A program made the translations under genes and the position numbers. 11,412 nucleotides of DNA from an uncultured Deferribacteres bacterium (GTDB taxonomy: Bacteria; Zhuqueibacterota; Zhuqueibacteria; Zhuqueibacterales; Geothermadaptataceae), in assembly GCA_964014485.1 (NCBI GenBank), contig CAXHAT010000229.1, positions 1 to 11,412 on the forward strand, given 5' to 3'. The first letter of the stretch is position 1. Each line of letters begins with the position of its first letter. The notes beneath the pieces are model-generated. The model was not told the DNA's origin, did no database searches, and saw only the letters and a program-made list of their open reading frames with translations. Of this stretch, positions 1 through 10,220 are shown in pieces.

Positions 1-331
1 TTATCTTCAGCGATTTTTCCAGATAGTCGAGTGCGGCGTCATAATCGCCCCGCGCTTTAAAAATCTGACTGATGTTGTTGAGCGTCGTCCCTTCCCCGGC
101 GCGGTCGCCGATCTCCTGCTGAATCGCAAGCGATTTTTCCAGATAGTCGAGTGCGGCGTCATAATCGCCCCGCGCTGAGTAAATCTGACTGATGTTGTTG
201 AGCGTCGTCCCTTCCCCGGCGCGGTCGCCGATCTCCTGCCTTATCTTCAGCGATTTTTCCAGATAGTCGAGTGCGGCGTCATAATCGCCCCGCGCGTCGT
301 AAATCTGACTGATGTTGTTGAGCGTCGTCCC
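1..331 (-). repeat. 120-nt tandem repeat encoding 40-aa TPR units (2 full + 1 partial in window)
   Basis: Units 212-331, 92-211, 1-91; the two full units match at 111/120 nt. Confidence 0.97.
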
Positions 332-2887
332 TAGTTGCTTTTTTTCCTCTTGCGAGCCGGGCGCCGCCATCTTTCGGTGCGCGATTTGAAAAAAATGCAA
401 TGCTTCGGCAAATTTTCCCAAATAATGAAAAATTTGCCCCAGACGGTTAAGCGCCTCCCAATTCGCTTTCTCGCCCAGCCGCTCAACCATCGGCAGCAGG
501 AGCGTCAAGGCCTGGGCAAAATTTTGCCGGTTAAAAAACAGGCTGCTCAGGTTTTCGGTCAGGGCGTCGGCTTCGCTTTGTAAAGCGGCGGCCTCAAAAT
601 GCTCAATCGCGGCGAGGTCGTCGCTAATCAGGCGTGTCACGTTTTTGCCCATGAATTGCCAGTGGCGCGCCAGGCGGGCGCGGGTTTGTTTTTGCGCCTC
701 CGGCGGCAGGTGGCGGTCGGCGAGCAAGGTTTTCACCAGCGGCGGCGTTTGCCAGGTCGGCAAGTCGTTCAAGGGCAAAACCCCGGCGTCAAGCAGGCTG
801 TAGTCATTCAAGCGCTGCAGGGCGTTTTCCAGCGCGGCGTCGGCCTCCCAGAGCGCACGCGCGCCGTCAACAATCAGCGGGCGCGTTTCCAGGCAGAGCT
901 GCTGTAATAAGTTCTGCTCGTTAGCGTCGAGCCGCCGCCAAAGCTGGTCAAACAGCAGGTTTTGGCGCATGGCTTCGCGCACGGTATGAACGGCGGCCTG
1001 CCCTGTGGAATAATTGTTCAACGGAGCGTCGTCCGGCACGGTCAGGCCGTCAAATTTTTGTTCGAGCTGCGCCCAGGTTTCCGGCGTTTTGCACAGCAGT
1101 CCGGAGGCCCACTCAATACTGCGGAAATTGCCGCCGAGGGCGCGGTGTATGTCGCGCTTGTCCTCCGGCGTTATGGCCGCGGGCCACTGCCAGTCACGCA
1201 TAAAGCGTAAAATATCGCCCAGGGTCGCGTCCGGCAATTCGGTGTTTTGCATCTCCAGGTCGGGCGTCGGGTAGCGGCAGGTGAGCAGAGCGCGGCAGCG
1301 GTCGCCGAGGGCAAGCACGGCGTTTAGGCAGGCTTTCAGGCCGGAGAATCCGGGCGTAAACGTGCGCGTTTGCAGGTCGAGGGCGTCTTCCAGGTTGTCA
1401 AAAATAAACAGGCAGTTTTGGCGGGCGGTCAGCCAGTCGAGCATTTTGCGCAGGCGGGCGTCACCCTCGAACAGTTGCAGTTTTTCCAATTCATCCTTGC
1501 TCGCCAGATCAAAAAGCGCTTCGTGGAGCTGCTGCTCCAAAGCCACGAGATCGAAGGGCGGGGTGAAGGCGAAGATTCTCAGTTCAGGTCTTTTCTTTTT
1601 CAATTTCATCGCGGCTTCGTCAGCAACGGGAAAAGTTGGCTGTTCCTGCTGTAGTTTCATCGCGAAATGCCCGGCAACCGCGGTCTTGCCGGCGCCGCCC
1701 ATGCCGTGAATCATCAGATGCGGCGTGCGTCCCTGCGCCCATTGCCGGAACCATCGCCGCCGGAACGCCCGCCGTCCAATAAAGCCGTCCTTTTTCACCA
1801 ACAGATCGCCAATTTGCACGTCGGCGCGGCGAGTGCGGGTGATTTCTTCCGGCGCTTTGTCCGGGTCATGCCAGGCGAGGCTCGTTTTGCGCGCGTGCAG
1901 TACGGGAATGCTCCATTGCAGGGTGACTTCGTTGGGCAGGTTGCGCCGGGCTTCGGTCACGGCGCGGTCGAGGTCGTGCCCGGCGCTCATCTGGCGGTAC
2001 ATTTCGGCGGCAAAATGGGTGGCCGCCGCATCGCCCACGGAACGCCTCATGCCAATCACCAGGGGAATGTGTTCGTCGGCCAGCGCGCGTGCAAAAGAAG
2101 GGATGGCCTGCGCGGCGTCGGCGCGAGCGGTCTGGCAGGCGGAGAGCGTGACGCAGGGCGCGGGCTTTTGCGCCGTTTTGAGCGCATCGAGCAGTTCTCG
2201 CGGGGTCACGGCGCAGTGCAGGCCGGTGGTCTCGTCTTCAAAAGAGAGCACGGGGCCGGTTTCTTCCAGCTTGCCGTGCATGCTCAGGTGGATCACGTGG
2301 TAGGTTTCGCGCCGGAGCCAGTTTTCGAGCGTTTTCAGCGCGCCGTCTTCCGCCACGTCCACCACGGCCTCGCCGTTGGAGATCGCTTCGTCGAGTTGGC
2401 TGAACAGGGCGTTTTCCTCGGCTTCAAAATCGAGGCGGGATTTTTCGGGATCAAGGTCTTCCGGCGAGGCAATAAAAAGCAAAATGCGCAGGGGCTTGGC
2501 GGGCAGATCGAGCTTTTTGTCGTCGGGTTCGGCGCTGCGGCGCACCAGGGTAAAATCGGGATTCCGCGCCAGAAATTGCAAGCGCTCGTCGGCGTGAAAC
2601 GTCATTTCCCACGGCAGGTTTTGCACGGCTGCGTCTTCGGAGAGCAGGTTCAGGCGCACAAACGTTTGATTCGCCAGCGCTTGTTCGCGCGCCGCGAGCA
2701 CGGCGTCCAAGCCGCCGTCGAGAGAATCGGCCAGCAAAGACCAAAGCTGCGTGCCGAGGGCGAGAATGTCCCGGTCGCTCGGCGACTGGCGTTTTTCGAG
2801 CTTGTCGTCAAAGCTTTTCGCCTTGCGAGAAAGTAAATCGAGCCTGTTTTTTTCAGGCTTGGGTTGAATGGTCAGTTCGACTGGCAT
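1..2887 (-). CDS. CHAT (caspase-like) protease - STAND/NB-ARC-like NTPase - TPR repeat protein (NLR-like), 3' end outside window, >=962 aa
   Basis: Manual translation from ATG at 2887 (MPVELTIQPKP..., RBS AAGGGG 7 nt upstream) is open to the window edge. CHAT motifs: LPWE, PLRILLFIASPEDL, VIHLSMHG (His204), VTLSACQT (Cys251), VIGMRRSVGD, WSIPVL. NTPase: GFIGRR, Walker A GMGGAGKT (1682-1705), Walker B LFIFDNLE (~1388-1411), LLTCRY. C-terminal 40-aa TPR units GTTLNNISQIxxARGDYDAALDYLEKSLxIxQEIGDRAGE. Confidence 0.93.
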   Translation of the reverse strand, partial: MPVELTIQPKPEKNRLDLLSRKAKSFDDKLEKRQSPSDRDILALGTQLWSLLADSLDGGLDAVLAAREQALANQTFVRLNLLSEDAAVQNLPWEMTFHADERLQFLARNPDFTLVRRSAEPDDKKLDLPAKPLRILLFIASPEDLDPEKSRLDFEAEENALFSQLDEAISNGEAVVDVAEDGALKTLENWLRRETYHVIHLSMHGKLEETGPVLSFEDETTGLHCAVTPRELLDALKTAQKPAPCVTLSACQTARADAAQAIPSFARALADEHIPLVIGMRRSVGDAAATHFAAEMYRQMSAGHDLDRAVTEARRNLPNEVTLQWSIPVLHARKTSLAWHDPDKAPEEITRTRRADVQIGDLLVKKDGFIGRRAFRRRWFRQWAQGRTPHLMIHGMGGAGKTAVAGHFAMKLQQEQPTFPVADEAAMKLKKKRPELRIFAFTPPFDLVALEQQLHEALFDLASKDELEKLQLFEGDARLRKMLDWLTARQNCLFIFDNLEDALDLQTRTFTPGFSGLKACLNAVLALGDRCRALLTCRYPTPDLEMQNTELPDATLGDILRFMRDWQWPAAITPEDKRDIHRALGGNFRSIEWASGLLCKTPETWAQLEQKFDGLTVPDDAPLNNYSTGQAAVHTVREAMRQNLLFDQLWRRLDANEQNLLQQLCLETRPLIVDGARALWEADAALENALQRLNDYSLLDAGVLPLNDLPTWQTPPLVKTLLADRHLPPEAQKQTRARLARHWQFMGKNVTRLISDDLAAIEHFEAAALQSEADALTENLSSLFFNRQNFAQALTLLLPMVERLGEKANWEALNRLGQIFHYLGKFAEALHFFQIAHRKMAAPGSQEEKKQLGTTLNNISQIYDARGDYDAALDYLEKSLKIRQEIGDRAGEGTTLNNISQIYSARGDYDAALDYLEKSLAIQQEIGDRAGEGTTLNNISQIFKARGDYDAALDYLEKSLKI

Positions 2888-2969
2888 GGGTTTTCCCCTT
2901 GTTAAATCATGCTGTTCCAAAGAGATTTTTTTGAATTGCTAAAGTTTTTTTACCAAAAACATTCATTAA

Positions 2970-3551
2970 CGTCATACCCGCCCCCGCCTGCGCGAGGATA
3001 AACTCCGGCGGGTATCCAGACAGCGGCGCCACTGGCTGGATACCTGCCTGCGCAGGTATGACGCCAGGGAGCGGGTCGAAAAAAGAGCGAGCATTGAATA
3101 GTCACATAGCTTTCTATCAATAATTGTTCGCGCACGTCATACCCGCCTGCGCGAGGATAAACTCCGGCTGATCCAGGTTTTGGGCGCCGCTGTCTGGATA
3201 CCTGCCTGCGCAGGTATGACGCGAGGGAGCGGGTCGAAAAAAGAGCGAACATTGAATAGTCACATAGCTTTCTATCAATAATTATTCGCGTACGCCATAC
3301 CCGCCCCCCGCCTGCGCGAGGATAAACTCCGGTTGATCCAGGTTTTGGGCGCCGCTGCCTGGATACCTGCCTGCGCAGGCATGACGCGAGGGAGCGGGTC
3401 GAAAAAAGAGCGAACATTGAATAGTCACATAGCTTTCTATCAATAATTATTCGCGTACGCCATACCCGCCCCCCGCCTGCGCGAGGATAAACTCCGGTTG
3501 ATCCAGGTTTTGGGCGCCGCTGCCTGGATACCTGCTTGCACAGGCATGACA
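2970..3551. repeat. Tandem array of four CGTC-type REP doublets (REPIN/BIME-like) separated by a near-constant 71-nt linker
   Basis: Units 2970-3063, 3135-3221, 3293-3386, 3458-3551 (period 165/158/165). Each runs CG(T/C)CATACCCG...ATCCAG...CTGGATACCTGCCTGCGCAGG(T/C)ATGAC, with inverted ends and an internal hairpin (unit 4 slightly mutated). The right arm translates as WIPACAGMT, typical of this repeat class. Confidence 0.9.
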
Positions 3552-3592
3552 TGTGAGTGGTTGTCCTTGGCCAAGAAAAAAGTCAATCCGCT

Positions 3593-3880
3593 TCATAGCT
3601 TGTCGTATAAATCTTCCCATTTTGGGTTCATATCTTCAATCAACTTTAGTTTCCAGATGCGTTTCCATTTTTTAAGGCGTTTTTCTCGCAGAATCGCTTG
3701 ATACGGATCATCGATCCTTTCGAAATAGACCAGCAGATGGGTCTTGTGCTTTTTGGTAAATCCGTCGATCAGGTTGTTCCGGTGCTCGTAAACGCGCCGC
3801 ATTAAATCATTCGTGACGCCGACGTAAAGCGTGCCGTTTCTTTTGTTGGCGAGGATGTAGACGTACATGGGTTTGGGCAT
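3593..3880 (-). CDS. Standalone GIY-YIG nuclease family protein (95 aa)
   Basis: YVYIL...LYVGVT..L.RR..EH...E...A..REK.LK.W.R.WK..LIE..NP.W.DL pattern; conserved Tyr/Arg/Glu/Asn residues present. Confidence 0.95.
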   Translation of the reverse strand: MPKPMYVYILANKRNGTLYVGVTNDLMRRVYEHRNNLIDGFTKKHKTHLLVYFERIDDPYQAILREKRLKKWKRIWKLKLIEDMNPKWEDLYDKL

Positions 3881-3952
3881 GATACGTTTCTTTACTTTTG
3901 TTTCAGATCGTTCTTGATGAAGCTGTTCTGGAACACAACAAAGTTCACTTAA

Positions 3953-4037
3953 ATCATACCGCCTGCGCGAGGATAAACTCCGGCTGATCCAGGTTTTGGG
4001 CGCCGCTGTCTGGATACCTGCCTGCGCAGGTATGACA
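3953..4037. repeat. Fifth REP doublet copy, same orientation as the 2970-3551 array
   Basis: TCATACCGCCTGCGCGAGGATAAACTCCGGCTGATCCAGGTTTTGGGCGCCGCTGTCTGGATACCTGCCTGCGCAGGTATGAC; differs from unit 3135-3221 only by one missing C and the terminal bases. Confidence 0.93.
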
Positions 4038-4083
4038 TTATGGGACTGTTAAAAAAGCCGACATAACGTAATTGCGGACTTAA

Positions 4084-4308
4084 TCATTTGGGCTTCCGCG
4101 AACCGCCGCGAAAGATGGTTCCGGTTTCGGCGATTGCGCGGGGCAAGGTGACGATGAGTTCGTTTTGACAATATTGACAATTGACCATCACTTCCACTTC
4201 GCCCTTGGCGTTTTGGGGCGCGTCCGGGGCTGGATTGAGGTGAAACGGCTTGCTGCAATGATCGCAAGTGACTTGATAGACTTTTGGCTTTTCATTTGGC
4301 TGATTCAT
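4084..4308 (-). CDS. Small zinc-ribbon protein (74 aa, CDHC...CQYC)
   Basis: Internal ATG of ORF 4084..4416 with RBS GAGGA 6 nt upstream; two CxxC motifs; C-terminal tail TGTIFRGGSRKPK. Confidence 0.75.
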   Translation of the reverse strand: MNQPNEKPKVYQVTCDHCSKPFHLNPAPDAPQNAKGEVEVMVNCQYCQNELIVTLPRAIAETGTIFRGGSRKPK

Positions 4309-4421
4309 GGCAAATCCTCGTTTGAAGTTCTTTTCATGCAAGCCGTTCGGTCGGCAAAACAGATTCTTCCCAACCCGGGCAAGCCGGAACCAATCAGGAG
4401 CGTGATTCAATCTCATGACTT

Positions 4422-4562
4422 AACGCAGAGAGCTTCGCAGAGTTTTTTTAAAACAAAAATTTAGATATCCGTTTTTGCGCTATCGTACTTCGGATCTCTG
4501 CGGGGTTGAACTCAAAATTAAAAGTTTTCTGCGCATCTCTGCGTCCTTTGCGTCTCTGCGTT
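4422..4562. repeat. Short palindromic element built from CGCAGAG/CTCTGCG units
   Basis: AACGCAGAGA (4422-4431) is the perfect inverse of TCTCTGCGTT (4553-4562); four YTYTGCG units at 8-10 nt spacing in 4527-4560. Confidence 0.6.
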
Positions 4563-4622
4563 TTGGAAAGTCTTGCCAAAAATTGGCAGAAAATTGCTTT
4601 ACAGAAACTAAACGACAATTTT

Positions 4623-4661
4623 AAAAAACAAAGCGGGAGAGCAGGGTCGTTCAATCCCGCT
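4623..4661 (-). terminator. Possible intrinsic terminator after the TM gene
   Basis: Minus strand AGCGGGA-N16-TCCCGCT then TTGTTTTTT, overlapping the TAG stop; the loop is long. Confidence 0.35.
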
Positions 4662-5076
4662 ACAAATTCTCCGCAACGACAAGCACCCCGGCGGCAAAGA
4701 GGACAGCGGAAATCAGGAGAAATCCCCATTTCAGCCAACGGGCAAGCGAATAGACGCGCTGTATTTCTTCAGCCGCATTGCGCGTGTGTTTGTAGGGCAG
4801 CGGCATGAGCACAAGTACAGCGAAAATCGCACTGATCGCCCACAGCCAGAACGGCCAGCTTGCCAACTCCTGCGGGGTCGGCGTTTTGAGCGCGGTTTGC
4901 ACTTTCAGCGCTGCCGTGAAAAGTCCGGCAAAAACGCCGACCGCCGTGATGAGAAACTTGGCCGCTTCCTCCAGCCGTGCAAAGCTGTCTTTAAAATCTT
5001 CCCGCGCGAAATCGACCCAGAATTTGTCTTCGTCGTTGGGTTTGCGGCTCTCGAGATTGATAATTTCGTCGGACAT
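4660..5076 (-). CDS. Three-TM membrane protein (138 aa), unknown function
   Basis: Start MSDEII at 5076 with RBS AAAGGA 8 nt upstream; hydrophobic segments FLITAVGVFAGLFTAAL, WPFWLWAISAIFAVLVLMP, WGFLLISAVLFAAGVLVVA. Confidence 0.82.
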   Translation of the reverse strand: MSDEIINLESRKPNDEDKFWVDFAREDFKDSFARLEEAAKFLITAVGVFAGLFTAALKVQTALKTPTPQELASWPFWLWAISAIFAVLVLMPLPYKHTRNAAEEIQRVYSLARWLKWGFLLISAVLFAAGVLVVAENL

Positions 5077-5580: not shown

Positions 5581-5615
5581 TTTTCTTGAGAAAGGTTTGC
5601 AATAGAATCGAATTT

Positions 5616-6008
5616 ATGGATAAATCACATTATCTCCACCTCAGCAAGCGCGAATGCCAAATCATGGACGTGGTTTACAAACTCGGTCAAGCCAGCGCGT
5701 TCGATATTGAAAAACATTTGGCCGATCCGCCGAGTTATCACTCGATTCGCGTCACGCTCGGCATTCTCGAAAAGAAGGGCTATTTAACGCATCGGCGCGA
5801 AGGGCAGCGCTATATTTTTTCACCGACCGACTCAGCGGAAACGGCGCAAAACTCAATTTTGGAGCACGTACTCTCGACATTTTTCAAAGGCTCGGCGCAG
5901 AACATCGTCTCGGCGGTTTTGAACATGCAAGCCTCAAAAATGTCCGACAAGGAGCTCGACAAACTCACGGATATGATTGAAAAAGCCAAAAGAGAGAATG
6001 CGAAATGA
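5616..6008 (+). CDS. BlaI/MecI/CopY family transcriptional repressor (130 aa)
   Basis: LSKRECQIMDVVYKLG...SYHSIRVTLGILEKKGYL...GQRYIFSP...FFKGS pattern; stop overlaps the M56 start (ATGA). ATG at 5616 preferred over TTG at 5586; start uncertain. Confidence 0.93.
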   Translation: MDKSHYLHLSKRECQIMDVVYKLGQASAFDIEKHLADPPSYHSIRVTLGILEKKGYLTHRREGQRYIFSPTDSAETAQNSILEHVLSTFFKGSAQNIVSAVLNMQASKMSDKELDKLTDMIEKAKRENAK

Positions 6009-7765
6009 CGGCCTGGTTGGTGAGCCTTTTCGACCCTGCGGCGCCCTCAGTCATTTTTCTTAACATCGTCGCCAAATCGACGATTATCTTCCTGGTCGCA
6101 GCAACGGTGAACGTTTTCCTGCAACGCGTCTCCGCATCAGTTCGCCACTGGGTTTGGACGCTCGCCTTTTTGGGCATAATTCTCACGCCGTTTCTTTCTT
6201 CATTCACGCCGCAAAAAACCATCGCATTGCCGGAGACGGCGTTTGAAAAAAGCGCGCCTGTCAAAACCTCAAAAAATGAATCGCCGCCGCGTACCGAAAC
6301 AAAATTTCAACGCAAAGATTCTGCTGAAACCGCCCAACATCCGGCGCCGTCGACTGAGCGGCCTGCCCAACCGATTGCAGATTTCCAGACGCTCGACGCA
6401 AAGAGCGTTTTTTTCACGATTTGGCTTGCGGGGGCCGCGCTTCTGCTGCTTCGTCTGCTCTTCGATCTGTCTGTGCTCGCGTTTATCAGTCATCGGGGCG
6501 CCAGACCCCGGACCTCGGCATGGTCGCGGGATTTGCGTGTGTTTAAATCGCGTTTAAATATTAAGCGAACGATTCGAATCGCCACGAGCAGCGTGGTTGA
6601 ATTCCCGCTGACCGCAGGCGTTTTTCGTCCGGTGATTTTGATTCCCGAACACGCGGAAAAATGGGACGCCGAGCAGCGCCAGATGACGTTGCAACATGAG
6701 TTGGCGCACATCAAACGCTTTGATTTTCTGAGCAATATTCTGGCGCAAATGGTCTGCGCCGCGCTCTGGTTTCACCCTCTGGCATGGTTCGCCAAACGCC
6801 GTTTGCAGATCGAGCGTGAAAAAGCTTGCGACGACTACGTTTTGCGTTCCGGCGCCCGTTGGAACGACTACGCTTCCTGCCTGGTCGAAATCGCCAGAAA
6901 ATCCCCGTTTCGACAAAAATTTGCGCCGCGCGTCGTCGGGATGGCGCACCAGGCAGAACTCAAAATCCGGTTAAAATCGATCTTGAAACCTGGAACGCCG
7001 CGCCGGGGACTGAGCGTCGCCGCTTCTCTCTCAACCGCCGCTTTCGCACTCGGCGTCATGCTGAGTCTGGCGTTTTTTAAGTTGGAAAAAACAGTCGCAA
7101 GCATTGCGGGAGACGTTCAAGATCAAGTCTCAGAATTCAATGTCAAAAATGACTCTGCATTGGCGTCGCACGGTTTTGACACGCGATCTTTCGCATCCCT
7201 CTCGACGGCGCTCAAACACAAATCACCCGACGTACGCGCTGAAGCGACGTTGGCGCTCGGCGAATTGCATGATGAGCGTGCAATAAAAAACCTGGTCGCG
7301 ATGCTGAAAGACGACAACGCGCAGGTTCGGGCGAGCGCTTTGAACGGATTGGCGCAATTCGGCAAAAGAAAGAATTTCCACGACGTTTTGCCTTTTGTTT
7401 TAGCAAAAGGCCCGAAAGTGCGCGCAGCATCGATGAACGTTTTGAGCGCCATCGGCTGCGAGCCGGCGTTTATCGCGATCTCGCACTTGTTAGATGATGA
7501 AAATCCAAAAGTTAGAGCCGCCGCCGTACGCGGATTAAGACCGTACGAGCGCTGGCTCTTTTCCAAGCCGCTTTTTCATTTCGAGAAAGAGCAAGCATCG
7601 ATCAATCGTCGTTCTCTCTCGAAAGTAATCCCTCGCTTCGATTCGCGCAGCGCGCAGGAAATGCTTGAAGACTTGCTTGAAAACGACCCTTCTCCGGCAG
7701 TTCGCCAGGAAGTCGTCGAGGTATTGCATCATCAAGGAATAATTATTCGCAGCAACAAAATTTAA
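6005..7765 (+). CDS. BlaR1/MecR1-type M56 metallopeptidase with C-terminal HEAT repeats (586 aa)
   Basis: N-terminal TMs, SASVRHWVW, P...G.FRP.ILIP, zinc motif HELAH, WFHPLAW, EREKACDD, YASCL; C-terminal L.D.N..VRA.A...L repeats. Confidence 0.93.
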   Translation: MTAWLVSLFDPAAPSVIFLNIVAKSTIIFLVAATVNVFLQRVSASVRHWVWTLAFLGIILTPFLSSFTPQKTIALPETAFEKSAPVKTSKNESPPRTETKFQRKDSAETAQHPAPSTERPAQPIADFQTLDAKSVFFTIWLAGAALLLLRLLFDLSVLAFISHRGARPRTSAWSRDLRVFKSRLNIKRTIRIATSSVVEFPLTAGVFRPVILIPEHAEKWDAEQRQMTLQHELAHIKRFDFLSNILAQMVCAALWFHPLAWFAKRRLQIEREKACDDYVLRSGARWNDYASCLVEIARKSPFRQKFAPRVVGMAHQAELKIRLKSILKPGTPRRGLSVAASLSTAAFALGVMLSLAFFKLEKTVASIAGDVQDQVSEFNVKNDSALASHGFDTRSFASLSTALKHKSPDVRAEATLALGELHDERAIKNLVAMLKDDNAQVRASALNGLAQFGKRKNFHDVLPFVLAKGPKVRAASMNVLSAIGCEPAFIAISHLLDDENPKVRAAAVRGLRPYERWLFSKPLFHFEKEQASINRRSLSKVIPRFDSRSAQEMLEDLLENDPSPAVRQEVVEVLHHQGIIIRSNKI

Positions 7766-8203: not shown

Positions 8204-9115
8204 ATGAATATCAAATTCCTTACCCTCTTTGTCTTTCTAACTCTTCTTTTCGGTGTCAAGGCGCAAAATCGAGCGCGAGTCGAGGTCAAAATCGAAAAAA
8301 TCGCTTTTCAGAGCGGCGGAGAAACGTTGCGCGGCGATCTGCGACTGCCGATCAAACCGGGGCCGCATCCGGCGTTCGTGACGGTTCACGGCTCCGGCTA
8401 CACGACGCGGAACGGCCACTTTGTTAAGACGTTCGCTGAGCGTTTCTCACGGTTGGGATTCGCCGTCCTGACTTACGACAAGCGCGGAACGGGCGAATCC
8501 GAGGGCGAGCTGCCAAAAAGCAATAAATTCGGCATGCGCATTTTCGCCGATGACGCTATCGCGGCAATCAAATTTCTAAAAGAGCGCCCGGATATTGATT
8601 CGACGCAGATCGGCCTCGAAGGCGTAAGCCAAGCAGGTTGGATCATTCCGATGGCGGCGGTCGAGTCTGGGGACATCGCTTTCAACATCATCGTTTCCGG
8701 CCCAACGACGACGATTTTTGAAGAAGATTATTACAGCGATTTGACCGGCGACAACCAAGCCGTTCCGACAAATCTTCCCGCCGAAGAAATCGAAAAGCGC
8801 GTGCGTGAAAAAGGGCCGCGCGGCTTCGGAGCCCTGCCTTGGCTGAAAAGAATGAACATTCCGACGCTCTGGATTTATGGCGAGCTCGACCAAAGCATCC
8901 CGGTTTTTCTCTGTCTGGAAATGCTCGACAACTTAATCGAAAATGACGGCAAACCGTTCGAGTACAAGATTTTCGAAAACGCAAACCACGGCCTGAAAGT
9001 CGCGAAAACCGGCGGTCGCTGGGAACGTCCCGTTCCGCGCAAGACGGTTCCAGGTTATTTCGAAACGATGGAAGAATGGTTATTTCAGCGGATTAGTTTT
9101 AAAGAACAAAAATGA
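8204..9115 (+). CDS. Secreted alpha/beta hydrolase (serine aminopeptidase/S9-S15-like), 303 aa
   Basis: Signal-peptide-like N-terminus; VHGSG, YDKRGTGES, nucleophile GVSQAG, GELDQSIP (Asp), NANHGL (His). Confidence 0.92.
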   Translation: MNIKFLTLFVFLTLLFGVKAQNRARVEVKIEKIAFQSGGETLRGDLRLPIKPGPHPAFVTVHGSGYTTRNGHFVKTFAERFSRLGFAVLTYDKRGTGESEGELPKSNKFGMRIFADDAIAAIKFLKERPDIDSTQIGLEGVSQAGWIIPMAAVESGDIAFNIIVSGPTTTIFEEDYYSDLTGDNQAVPTNLPAEEIEKRVREKGPRGFGALPWLKRMNIPTLWIYGELDQSIPVFLCLEMLDNLIENDGKPFEYKIFENANHGLKVAKTGGRWERPVPRKTVPGYFETMEEWLFQRISFKEQK

Positions 9116-9152: not shown

Positions 9153-10220
9153 TTAGTCCACCCGGTAAACCGTCGCCTTGCGTTCGCCGATTTTTTCGAG
9201 CGCGGCGATTTGCACCAAATGCTTCAAGTCTTTTTTCAGCGTGTGGATAGACGTTTCGGAAAAACTGTCGTGAATCTCCCCAACTTTGCAAGGGCCGTTC
9301 GCTTTGACGAATGTCAAAATTCGTTTTTGCCGCGGATTAAGATGTGACGCTTTCCGTAATTCGGTTTGCTGAAGCTTCAACTCGAGCTTCGTTGTTAAAG
9401 TTTGCAGAGATTTCAGAAAAAACAGCATCCAGTCGTCAATGATTTCCACTTCGGTGTTACGATGCTGATGCCCTGCCATCAACGCGGCGTAGTAAGATTT
9501 TTTGCGCTCTTCAATCAAATGCTCGAAGGAGATGTACTTGATGAAATTATACTCTTTTTTGAGCAGCAGAAAAGTTGTCAGCAAGCGGGAAAGTCTGCCG
9601 TTGCCGTCGTGGAATGGATGAATAGATAAGAATTCATAGATGAACAAGCCAATAACGATGAGCGGGTGAATTATCCGATCCTCGAGGCGCCGGTTCGTCC
9701 ATGCGATCACGCTTCGCATTTCTTCCGGAACAAGATGCGGTTCGGTAGTCTTGAAAATGACTTTTTGCGTTCCGTCGGGATAGGTCACGACGACTTTGTT
9801 TGTCAATTGTTTATAGTCGCCGCGCTGACGGTCGTCTTTTTTGCTGTGCTTGAGCACAATCCCGTGTAATTGTTTGATATAGTTTTCGGTGAGATCAATA
9901 TCACGGAAACTTTCCAAAATTATTTCGAGCGTCTCATAATAACCGGCGACTTCCTGAGCGTCTCTGGTCTCGAGTTTTGAGATTTCCAGCTTGGCAATCA
10001 GTTTTTTTACTTCATTGTCGGAAAGCGTCGCGCCTTCGATTCGCGTCGATGAGCCCACACTTTCAATCGTCGCGACAGTTCTCAATTCATTGAGAAAGGA
10101 AGCGTGCTGATTTTCCAGAACAGACCATCTTCCTTTCGATTCGTCAATCTTGGCGATCAGATTCAATATTTCATGAGCCGCGTTGGGATCGAATTGAATT
10201 TTAGCTTCAAAAGTATCCAT
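9153..10220 (-). CDS. Fic family protein (class II) with C-terminal winged HTH, 355 aa
   Basis: Canonical HPFHDGNGRLSR motif; N-terminal inhibitory motif STRIEG; C-terminal LNPRQKRIL...TLKKDLKHLV...GERKATVY wHTH. Confidence 0.95.
   Translation of the reverse strand: MDTFEAKIQFDPNAAHEILNLIAKIDESKGRWSVLENQHASFLNELRTVATIESVGSSTRIEGATLSDNEVKKLIAKLEISKLETRDAQEVAGYYETLEIILESFRDIDLTENYIKQLHGIVLKHSKKDDRQRGDYKQLTNKVVVTYPDGTQKVIFKTTEPHLVPEEMRSVIAWTNRRLEDRIIHPLIVIGLFIYEFLSIHPFHDGNGRLSRLLTTFLLLKKEYNFIKYISFEHLIEERKKSYYAALMAGHQHRNTEVEIIDDWMLFFLKSLQTLTTKLELKLQQTELRKASHLNPRQKRILTFVKANGPCKVGEIHDSFSETSIHTLKKDLKHLVQIAALEKIGERKATVYRVD

Follow-up and report, generated by a model that had tools for sequence, protein, structure and literature searches.

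The stretch of DNA analyzed here (hereafter the window) is the whole of contig C229 (CAXHAT010000229.1; 11,412 nt) from an uncultured Deferribacteres bacterium, whose 8.4-Mb genome is distributed over 465 contigs. According to the open reading frame (ORF) calls and their translations, the minus strand carries, in order, a gene encoding a 138-aa membrane protein with three helices (5076..4660), a gene encoding a 74-aa zinc-ribbon protein with two CxxC knuckles (4308..4084), a stretch occupied by a GIY-YIG ORF and repeats, and a gene encoding a CHAT-STAND-TPR protein (2887..2), of which 962 aa lie in the window and whose C-terminal TPR end is lost at the contig edge. An initial annotation, made from the sequence alone, had proposed that these three co-oriented genes form a protease-triggered conflict module; all three were indeed found on the minus strand where it had placed them, and all three reading frames are open in this copy. 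It had also not recognized the trio as a named system. In agreement with this, PADLOC, Pfam, and NCBIfam contain no models for the two small proteins, and we found no paper on a CHAT-STAND-TPR gene linked to zinc-ribbon and three-helix membrane-protein genes.

The reading frame of the CHAT-STAND-TPR gene starts at an ATG at 2887, the same start as in its orthologs, and exits the contig at base 2, inside the TPR repeats. The CHAT domain (approximately 1934-2758, minus strand) was matched over the Pfam cut-off (E = 2.1e-27; residues 55-329 of the 973-aa ORF), and the C-terminus matched TPR_12 (E = 6.2e-43), with repeats from about residue 750 onward. Matches of the window protein to AAA_16 (E = 9.3e-07) and NPHP3_N both remained below the Pfam cut-offs; four homologs (L060, L073, L077, and L079) matched NACHT or nSTAND3, in part above the cut-offs and in part slightly below them. 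As the initial annotation had stated, the CHAT His/Cys dyad and both Walker motifs are intact. The catalytic residues His204 (encoded within 2273-2290, minus strand) and Cys251 (within 2129-2143, minus strand) lie in the HG ... (S/A)C(Q) context of CHAT proteases and were invariant in 14 out of the 14 aligned homologs; Walker A (GMGGAGKT, residues 395-402; 1682-1705, minus strand) and Walker B (LFIFDNLE, residues 493-500; 1388-1411, minus strand) were conserved in all seven orthologs.

The combination of CHAT, STAND, and TPR regions was confirmed by Pfam in each of the nine CHAT-gene neighbors of metagenome loci that were scanned; the CHAT gene of locus L035 encodes the same domains, and the cut gene of L070 only STAND and TPR. 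Total length of the orthologs ranged from approximately 895 to 1867 aa, with a strongly variable TPR array. In the window itself, PADLOC returned a generic TPR model, SAVED_CHAT (E = 9e-07), and a weak Csx1/Csm6 match (E = 0.0028), and no Avs, bNACHT, or NACHT system model matched the window proteins. CHAT genes are rare in this genome, with about six loci in 8.4 Mb. Another of its contigs (C438:3-485) opens inside TPR repeats with 70% identity to the last 100 aa of the window protein, with a stop codon 160 aa into the frame. It probably carries the 3' portion of the CHAT-STAND-TPR gene that the window lacks, the two being separated by an assembly break in the repeats. In one ortholog (genome G015, locus L026), about nine residues that are present in all other aligned sequences are absent right after the catalytic SACQ, and this protease may be impaired.

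The 74-aa protein has the features expected of a zinc ribbon, with two CxxC knuckles (CDHC at residues 15-18 and CQYC at residues 44-47) predicted to lie on beta-hairpins. In the AlphaFold2 model, which is of modest confidence (mean pLDDT 64), four strands flank the knuckles and residues 62-74 form a disordered tail. Among 18 aligned CHAT-linked homologs, C15, C44, C47, P56, and G68 were invariant, C18 and R67 were conserved at 90% or more, and the Met start and Lys20 were also among the invariant or near-invariant positions. Zinc-ribbon families of Pfam matched below threshold only, and none matched in NCBIfam or PADLOC. The protein is placed on the cytoplasmic side.

The 138-aa protein exhibits three hydrophobic peaks, near residues 47-51, 80-87, and 123-129, and was modeled by AlphaFold2 as a three-helix bundle (helices 15-62, 74-90, and 102-137; mean pLDDT 93.6). 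Its N-terminal helix is acidic, and a conserved PLPYxH motif follows helix 2. Five Lys/Arg residues are present in loop 92-116 versus one in loop 61-74, a charge distribution that fits a cytoplasmic N-terminus (N-in), with the N-terminal helix and the loop between helices 2 and 3 facing the cytoplasm. The small proteins had first appeared to be orphans, as a word-index search returned only self-matches; this reflected the sensitivity limit of that search, and later searches found relatives. A profile search of 1.84 billion representative proteins identified 855 representative relatives of the membrane protein at E ≤ 0.001, 233 of them at E ≤ 1e-10. This large family has no name: neither Pfam nor NCBIfam contains it, and Pfam gave only scattered, chance-level membrane matches at E ≤ 1. 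A Foldseek search of the model against the PDB gave nothing at E ≤ 0.001; chains of NINJ1 appeared at E of about 2 with TM-scores of 0.4-0.5, which we treat as a lead only. The wide fold search with VIA-align returned generic helical bundles (Z ≤ 10.1), below the level that is meaningful for such bundles.

To determine if the three genes belong together, we performed six-frame searches of 40 related genomes of the candidate phylum KSB1/Zhuqueibacterota, in which the membrane protein was found in 14 genomes and the zinc ribbon in 8. Close homologs of the membrane protein, defined by E ≤ 1e-25, were present in nine genomes besides that of the window, with 34-44% identity. In six of these nine (G003, G008, G013, G015, G020, and G016), the trio is adjacent, co-oriented, and in the order of the window; G016 is unpublished, and five complete trios are counted without it. 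In G012, the membrane gene closes one contig and a second contig opens with the zinc-ribbon and CHAT genes, and in G019 and G022 the contig stops at the membrane gene. No locus contradicting the linkage was found among the nine genomes. The surroundings of the trio vary between genomes, and the gap between the zinc-ribbon and CHAT genes is 2-80 bp at the seven loci, from seven relatives, that show this junction. When genome contigs were scanned with a narrow membrane-protein alignment, six loci were returned, all from genomes already in the set.

The linkage extends to distant lineages. Metagenome contigs were scanned using the membrane-protein pattern R[IL]E[ED][TV]AK[FY][LI] as sole seed, which holds no information on neighboring genes; the clade seeded in this way is about 30% identical to the window's membrane protein and returned 20 loci. 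A CHAT-STAND-TPR gene was observed beside the membrane gene, within about 430 bp, in 13 of them (L060, L061, L062, L067, L069, L070, L071, L072, L073, L074, L076, L077, and L079, with L069 being degenerate). Six contigs are too short to judge, stopping at most a few hundred bases from the membrane gene, and at the remaining locus (L066) the membrane and zinc-ribbon genes are followed by an amino-acid permease, with no CHAT gene. The zinc ribbon was present in 12 of the 20 loci. Four gene orders were seen: membrane, zinc ribbon, CHAT; CHAT, membrane, zinc ribbon; zinc ribbon, CHAT, membrane; and zinc ribbon, membrane, CHAT. Junctions overlap by 8 nt or show a 3-nt gap in L070, L072, L073, and L079. 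In L072 (2-9258), the whole unit of CHAT-STAND-TPR, membrane, and zinc-ribbon genes occurs twice in tandem; after the two units, a truncated third one begins and is fused to a membrane-protein-like ORF. Two more trios were found in other families of the phylum (L089 and L090). Some of the distant loci have SusD-like neighbors, which we take to be typical of Bacteroidota, so that the linkage presumably spans at least two phylum-level settings.

Overall, these data indicate that the three-gene unit is real. A neighborhood analysis of the homologs of the two small genes had been set beforehand as the test of the one-module proposal, and the small genes do adjoin CHAT-STAND genes elsewhere; the linkage kept both in relatives and in distant metagenomic lineages points to one module, not to chance neighbors. 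As it is retained at 25-30% identity, through rearrangement, co-duplication, and changing neighborhoods, a functional linkage of the three genes is strongly supported by the comparative data. In L069 (8695-12506), a short N-terminal CHAT fragment follows the zinc ribbon, then come unrelated ORFs, including a KAP/AAA_16 P-loop protein, with a TPR-rich ORF farther on; this locus looks like a disrupted or replaced copy.

Of 167 genomes of the phylum, 23 contain the membrane family and 10 its close form. Its distribution is patchy even inside single genera (2 of 4, 4 of 5, and 2 of 8 genomes). This patchy spread, together with the variable TPR length, the changing neighborhoods, and the tandem duplication, would fit an accessory conflict system.

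The window copy has a history of its own, since the module was invaded at both junctions in this genome with its reading frames kept open. As described in the initial annotation, the spacers consist of repeat elements and a REP/GIY-YIG cassette. The 1196-bp spacer between the zinc-ribbon and CHAT genes (2888-4083) contains a 95-aa GIY-YIG ORF (3593..3880, minus strand; Pfam GIY-YIG, E = 1.8e-15) flanked by five copies of a 165-nt repeat: four palindrome-rich, REP-like copies in tandem (2984-3636; repeat search, inverted repeats I1-I13) and a fifth at 3958-4122. A core of about 80 nt of this repeat was found by blastn on 19 contigs of the genome. Because the same junction measures only 2-80 bp in relatives, the GIY-YIG/repeat block is read as an insertion and not as part of the module; the GIY-YIG ORF and the 165-nt repeats (2950-4122) may constitute a mobile GIY-YIG/REP element. 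A paralog of the GIY-YIG protein, 78% identical, is encoded on another contig (C343:147-434) amid repeat-derived sequence, 0.9 kb downstream of a different CHAT protein of 863 aa, whose C-terminus resembles an FGE-sulfatase by eye. Two more distant GIY-YIG paralogs are located on C86 and C156.

The 351-bp spacer between the membrane and zinc-ribbon genes (4309..4659) contains two dispersed repeat elements (approximately 4330-4440 and 4520-4640), which blastn located 21 times on 20 contigs and 39 times on 35 contigs, respectively, as well as a weak terminator-like hairpin. The initial annotation had suggested a possible terminator at 4623-4661. A hairpin followed by a U-run does exist there (approximately 4628-4657, minus strand; -11.1 kcal/mol), but its stability is not better than that of shuffled sequences (z -1.13) and it was not called by the terminator scan. 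In three DNA contig sets from one marine metagenome study, the public contigs exhibited raised depth over the dispersed elements of this spacer, and none joined across the GIY-YIG insertion.

A second type of locus was found in KSB1 genomes, where a sister branch (L035-L041, L093-L095, and L100) encodes a protein of about 70 aa that aligns with the zinc ribbon, with C..H replacing the first CxxC (C..H...CxxC). Its partner is a three-helix membrane protein of about 145 aa, characterized by the N-terminus IYDSxPSEPDDxFWLEQG and encoded 0-25 nt downstream or overlapping. The zinc-ribbon-like and membrane genes are adjacent in 10 of the 11 sister loci, the exception being cut short by the contig edge. 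Of the seven sister loci with long flanks, only L035 has a CHAT gene in the vicinity, and none of the four with 1.5-kb flanks does. Among the best 150 family matches, 103 score nearer the CHAT-less branch and 47 nearer the CHAT-linked one. Moreover, a 241-aa protein (P0096) consists of a zinc-ribbon-like N-terminus fused to the membrane domain; its cluster occurs on eight contigs from several sources, with one member named from a Dehalococcoidales metagenome-assembled genome. Two other candidate fusions (P0042 and P0043) look like deletion or frameshift products and were not counted. Given the adjacency in loci devoid of a CHAT gene and the natural fusion, the zinc ribbon and the membrane protein most likely cooperate physically, and the CHAT-STAND-TPR gene would have been added to the pair in one branch. 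The layout of the sister pairs resembles that of a toxin-antitoxin pair.

The C-terminal tail of the zinc ribbon carries a motif that may connect the pair to the protease. In the window protein, it reads Ile-Phe-Arg-Gly (residues 65-68, with Phe-Arg-Gly at residues 66-68 corresponding to 4105-4113) and is followed by a tail of six residues. Two hydrophobic residues followed by [R/K]-G were observed in 18 out of 18 aligned CHAT-linked zinc ribbons, and also in those of L076 and G016, with 0-14 variable residues after the motif. In three further, more distant members, the Arg is kept and the next residue is Tyr or Lys. The 10 CHAT-less zinc-ribbon-like proteins have no comparable motif in common; the L035 protein, which has a CHAT gene nearby, ends in Lys-Gly. 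We read this hydrophobic-hydrophobic-Arg/Lys-Gly sequence as a candidate protease site or a candidate docking motif, both equally fair. The cleavage-site reading is suggested by the presence of a basic residue and Gly in a flexible tail, which is the expected look of a clan-CD protease site; metacaspases and paracaspases are described as cleaving after Arg or Lys (bioRxiv 10.1101/2021.06.07.447441). The same preprint describes, for the one CHAT protease whose bacterial membrane-effector substrate has been mapped, how a neighboring gasdermin is activated: a short, inhibitory C-terminal peptide is cut off in an exposed loop, at a Leu-Gly pair (P1-P1') that the protease requires. When the CHAT region (residues 1-350) was co-folded with the zinc ribbon, ipSAE values of 0.00 and 0.11 were obtained, against a mark of 0.32, which counts neither way. 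A conserved N-terminal Arg of the membrane protein was also considered as a cleavage site and rejected, as Arg11 is invariant in nine close homologs but not conserved in the distant CHAT-linked ones.

We favor, with moderate confidence, the interpretation of the trio as a sensor-protease system that has the zinc-ribbon/membrane pair as its output. It would be an accessory NLR-like system in which the CHAT-STAND-TPR protein acts as the cytoplasmic sensor: upon binding of a trigger to the TPR array, the STAND NTPase would switch or oligomerize, and the caspase-like CHAT protease would become active. The pre-existing pair would then serve as the output of the protease, which would most likely act on the flexible C-terminal hydrophobic-hydrophobic-Arg/Lys-Gly motif of the zinc ribbon and so release or activate the membrane protein. 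The membrane would be permeabilized or depolarized, leading to growth arrest or death as in abortive infection or another conflict response. The initial annotation had likewise envisaged ligand activation through the TPRs, cleavage of a partner by the protease, and membrane damage or immunity as the outcome; all of these steps are inferred, as are the identity of the cleaved protein and the toxicity of the membrane protein. In a more specific version, which we propose tentatively, the zinc ribbon would be a "safety catch" that is cut at Arg-Gly. An extended version is offered with similarly low confidence: the trio would be a widespread cell-suicide or immune system of three components, in which the NLR-like CHAT protease fires a two-part membrane toxin, with the zinc ribbon as the catch, the Arg-Gly tail as the fuse, and the three-helix protein as a member of a new pore-forming or depolarizing family. 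The CHAT-less pairs would then be a large, so far unrecognized class of modules resembling a membrane toxin with a zinc-ribbon antitoxin, from which the immune system originated.

Several observations weigh against this interpretation. Since two spacers filled with repeats, of 351 and 1196 bp, split the module in the window, co-transcription there appears doubtful. The zinc-ribbon/membrane pair is, to judge from its distribution, a module of its own; it is widespread without CHAT, so that its basic function would need no protease. The zinc ribbons of L078 and L077 stop at RG or RGE, so removal of a tail cannot be the general purpose of the motif in these proteins, which favors docking over cleavage. 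With regard to context, 70 flanking ORFs from 12 loci were scanned using PADLOC and a single clear known system was found, namely an AbiLi/AbiLii pair (L079:3-1759; E = 3.1e-70 and 6.8e-27) located about 1.7 kb upstream of the trio with one unrelated ORF between; a UvrD/GajB-like helicase at L028 has an unclear role, and the remaining matches were to generic kinase, ABC ATPase, and radical-SAM models. The membrane protein had no tblastn match in plasmids or phages. The defence-island signal is weak, and the label "immune" draws on architecture, not on gene context.

The main alternative is a flow of information in the opposite direction. The membrane protein and zinc ribbon would then sense, for example, a perturbation of the envelope and switch on the CHAT-STAND-TPR protein, whose protease would cleave other cellular or invader proteins, or itself. 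A precedent is found in the EACC1-caspase system, where a small membrane protein is suggested to sense and to activate a neighboring caspase-domain protein (PMC7159879). The pair is older and wider than its link to CHAT and could be an autonomous membrane-state module, and the basic-Gly tail, at which two members end exactly, could dock on the TPR array or on the protease. We nevertheless consider the reversed flow unlikely, because the large, variable TPR array already is the usual ligand sensor of a STAND protein, making a second sensor unneeded, and because the motif resembles a clan-CD protease site with a basic P1 and Gly at P1', as such sites are described in bioRxiv 10.1101/2021.06.07.447441.

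Less probable still is a pathway of regulatory or developmental proteolysis, like that of the HetF-type CHAT proteases of cyanobacterial differentiation or like protease-controlled membrane signaling. The CHAT region does show a weak NCBIfam similarity to HetF, far below the cut-off (E = 1.3e-08), and known defence neighbors are scarce. BlaI/BlaR1 genes occur next to two of the loci: a BlaI-type repressor and a BlaR1/M56 peptidase with C-terminal HEAT repeats (5586-7765, plus strand) are divergent from the membrane gene of the window, and a BlaI/BlaR1 pair directly follows the CHAT-less zinc-ribbon/membrane pair of G021 (L038:8474-10287). The window genome contains only three BlaI-like genes, and no other examined locus shows BlaI/BlaR1 neighbors; this adjacency may be due to chance. 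Against such a pathway, patchy distribution, differing neighborhoods, tandem duplication, and strongly variable TPR arrays typify accessory conflict genes rather than genes of core regulation.

It is very improbable that the gene order is simply inherited and that the small genes have no functional relation to the CHAT gene. The window genes do lie far apart, each with its own ribosome-binding site and with the weak terminator-like hairpin after the membrane gene, and the pair of L066 precedes a permease, but the linkage persists to 25-30% identity with rearranged orders, overlapping start and stop codons, and tandem co-duplication, and CHAT genes are rare in the window genome.

The other genes of the window look ordinary. 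They encode an S9/alpha-beta hydrolase with a signal-like N-terminus (8204-9115, plus strand), a Fic-domain protein (10220..9153, minus strand), and the N-terminal propeller of a prolyl oligopeptidase that is cut by the contig end (10314-11411, plus strand).

Protease-armed NLR-like sensors are common to bacterial, fungal, and animal immunity, and few bacterial outputs besides gasdermins are known. If the sensor-protease interpretation is right, the trio would represent a new and compact output, composed of a 74-aa zinc ribbon and a 138-aa membrane protein, and would point to a motif that a STAND-linked CHAT protease may recognize. It would also give a first functional handle on a membrane family of hundreds of clusters that is unnamed in databases, and an example of a self-standing effector pair later captured by a sensor-protease.

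In its logic, the trio resembles the EACC1-caspase, gasdermin, Craspase, and Avs/bNACHT systems, but it departs from each of them in a defining feature. The closest layout is that of the EACC1-caspase system ("System 4"; Kaur, Iyer, Burroughs and Aravind, eLife 2020, PMC7159879), as described in the text of that article. There too, the gene of a small membrane protein adjoins that of a caspase-superfamily peptidase, which can be extended by a STAND NTPase and by repeats that form a superstructure; the system is accessory and patchy, and the protease is proposed as mediator between the membrane component and the output. EACC1, however, is described as having a single conserved transmembrane helix with alpha+beta extensions, whereas the protein studied here has three helices and no EACC1 domain. 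The article's account of the system, which is mainly actinobacterial, includes no zinc-ribbon third gene, whereas the trio occurs in KSB1 and other metagenomic lineages. Finally, the C-terminus of the EACC1 partner has about 50 alternatives, in contrast to the constant STAND-TPR of the trio.

In gasdermin operons (bioRxiv 10.1101/2021.06.07.447441), the neighbor of a membrane-acting effector is likewise a CHAT protease, in many cases carrying TPR or NACHT; a short C-terminal peptide is cut off the effector in an exposed loop with Gly at P1', resulting in membrane permeabilization and cell death. The effector of these operons is a soluble, lipid-inserting beta-sheet protein, whereas the trio encodes an integral three-helix protein and no gasdermin. 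No gasdermin-fold effector was found here, as the small proteins have no Pfam match and the membrane protein was modeled as a three-helix bundle. Moreover, the candidate motif of the trio is located on a separate zinc-ribbon protein, and its candidate P1 residue is Arg/Lys instead of Leu. Craspase (type III-E CRISPR) also comprises a TPR-containing CHAT protease that acts on a small neighbor-encoded protein, but this protease is activated in an RNA-guided manner via Cas7-11, whereas in the trio a STAND NTPase lies between CHAT and TPR. The window contained no Cas7-11/gRAMP or other Cas-like ORF and no CRISPR array, its repeats being REP-like palindromes and the coding repeats of the TPRs.

Avs/bNACHT proteins, as presented in a 2026 survey of STAND proteins (PMC13581612), exhibit the same succession of an N-terminal effector, a central STAND NTPase, and a C-terminal TPR-like sensor. 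They are mostly single-gene systems with nuclease or similar effectors, whereas the trio has two obligatory small partners; the main text of the survey does not contain the word CHAT, and its supplements could list the clade.

Among small multi-helix membrane proteins of defence systems, PycTM of Pycsar (PF18967) shows weak signals of similarity to the membrane protein. PADLOC gave a weak PycTM match for the window protein (E = 0.003), and 4 of 106 family members matched PF18967 below threshold (best E = 4.9e-05). Alignment to PF18967 using hhalign gave a probability of 79% (E = 1.5e-05) for an aligned region of 39 columns confined to the last helix, and 4% with a small alignment; PycTM members make up 11% of one neighbor cluster in the Atlas. 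PF18967 had no match in the window genome at E ≤ 0.01 and none among 16 aligned membrane-family members at E ≤ 1. True PF18967 matches were found in 17 of the 40 related genomes at other loci; these proteins are about 180 aa long with an insert of about 70 aa, and no cyclase lies near the trio. The membrane protein may be a distant relative of PycTM. Overall, the known part of the module is probably its principle, an NLR-like protease with an output encoded by neighboring genes, and the new part is the undescribed trio itself with its two unnamed partner families.

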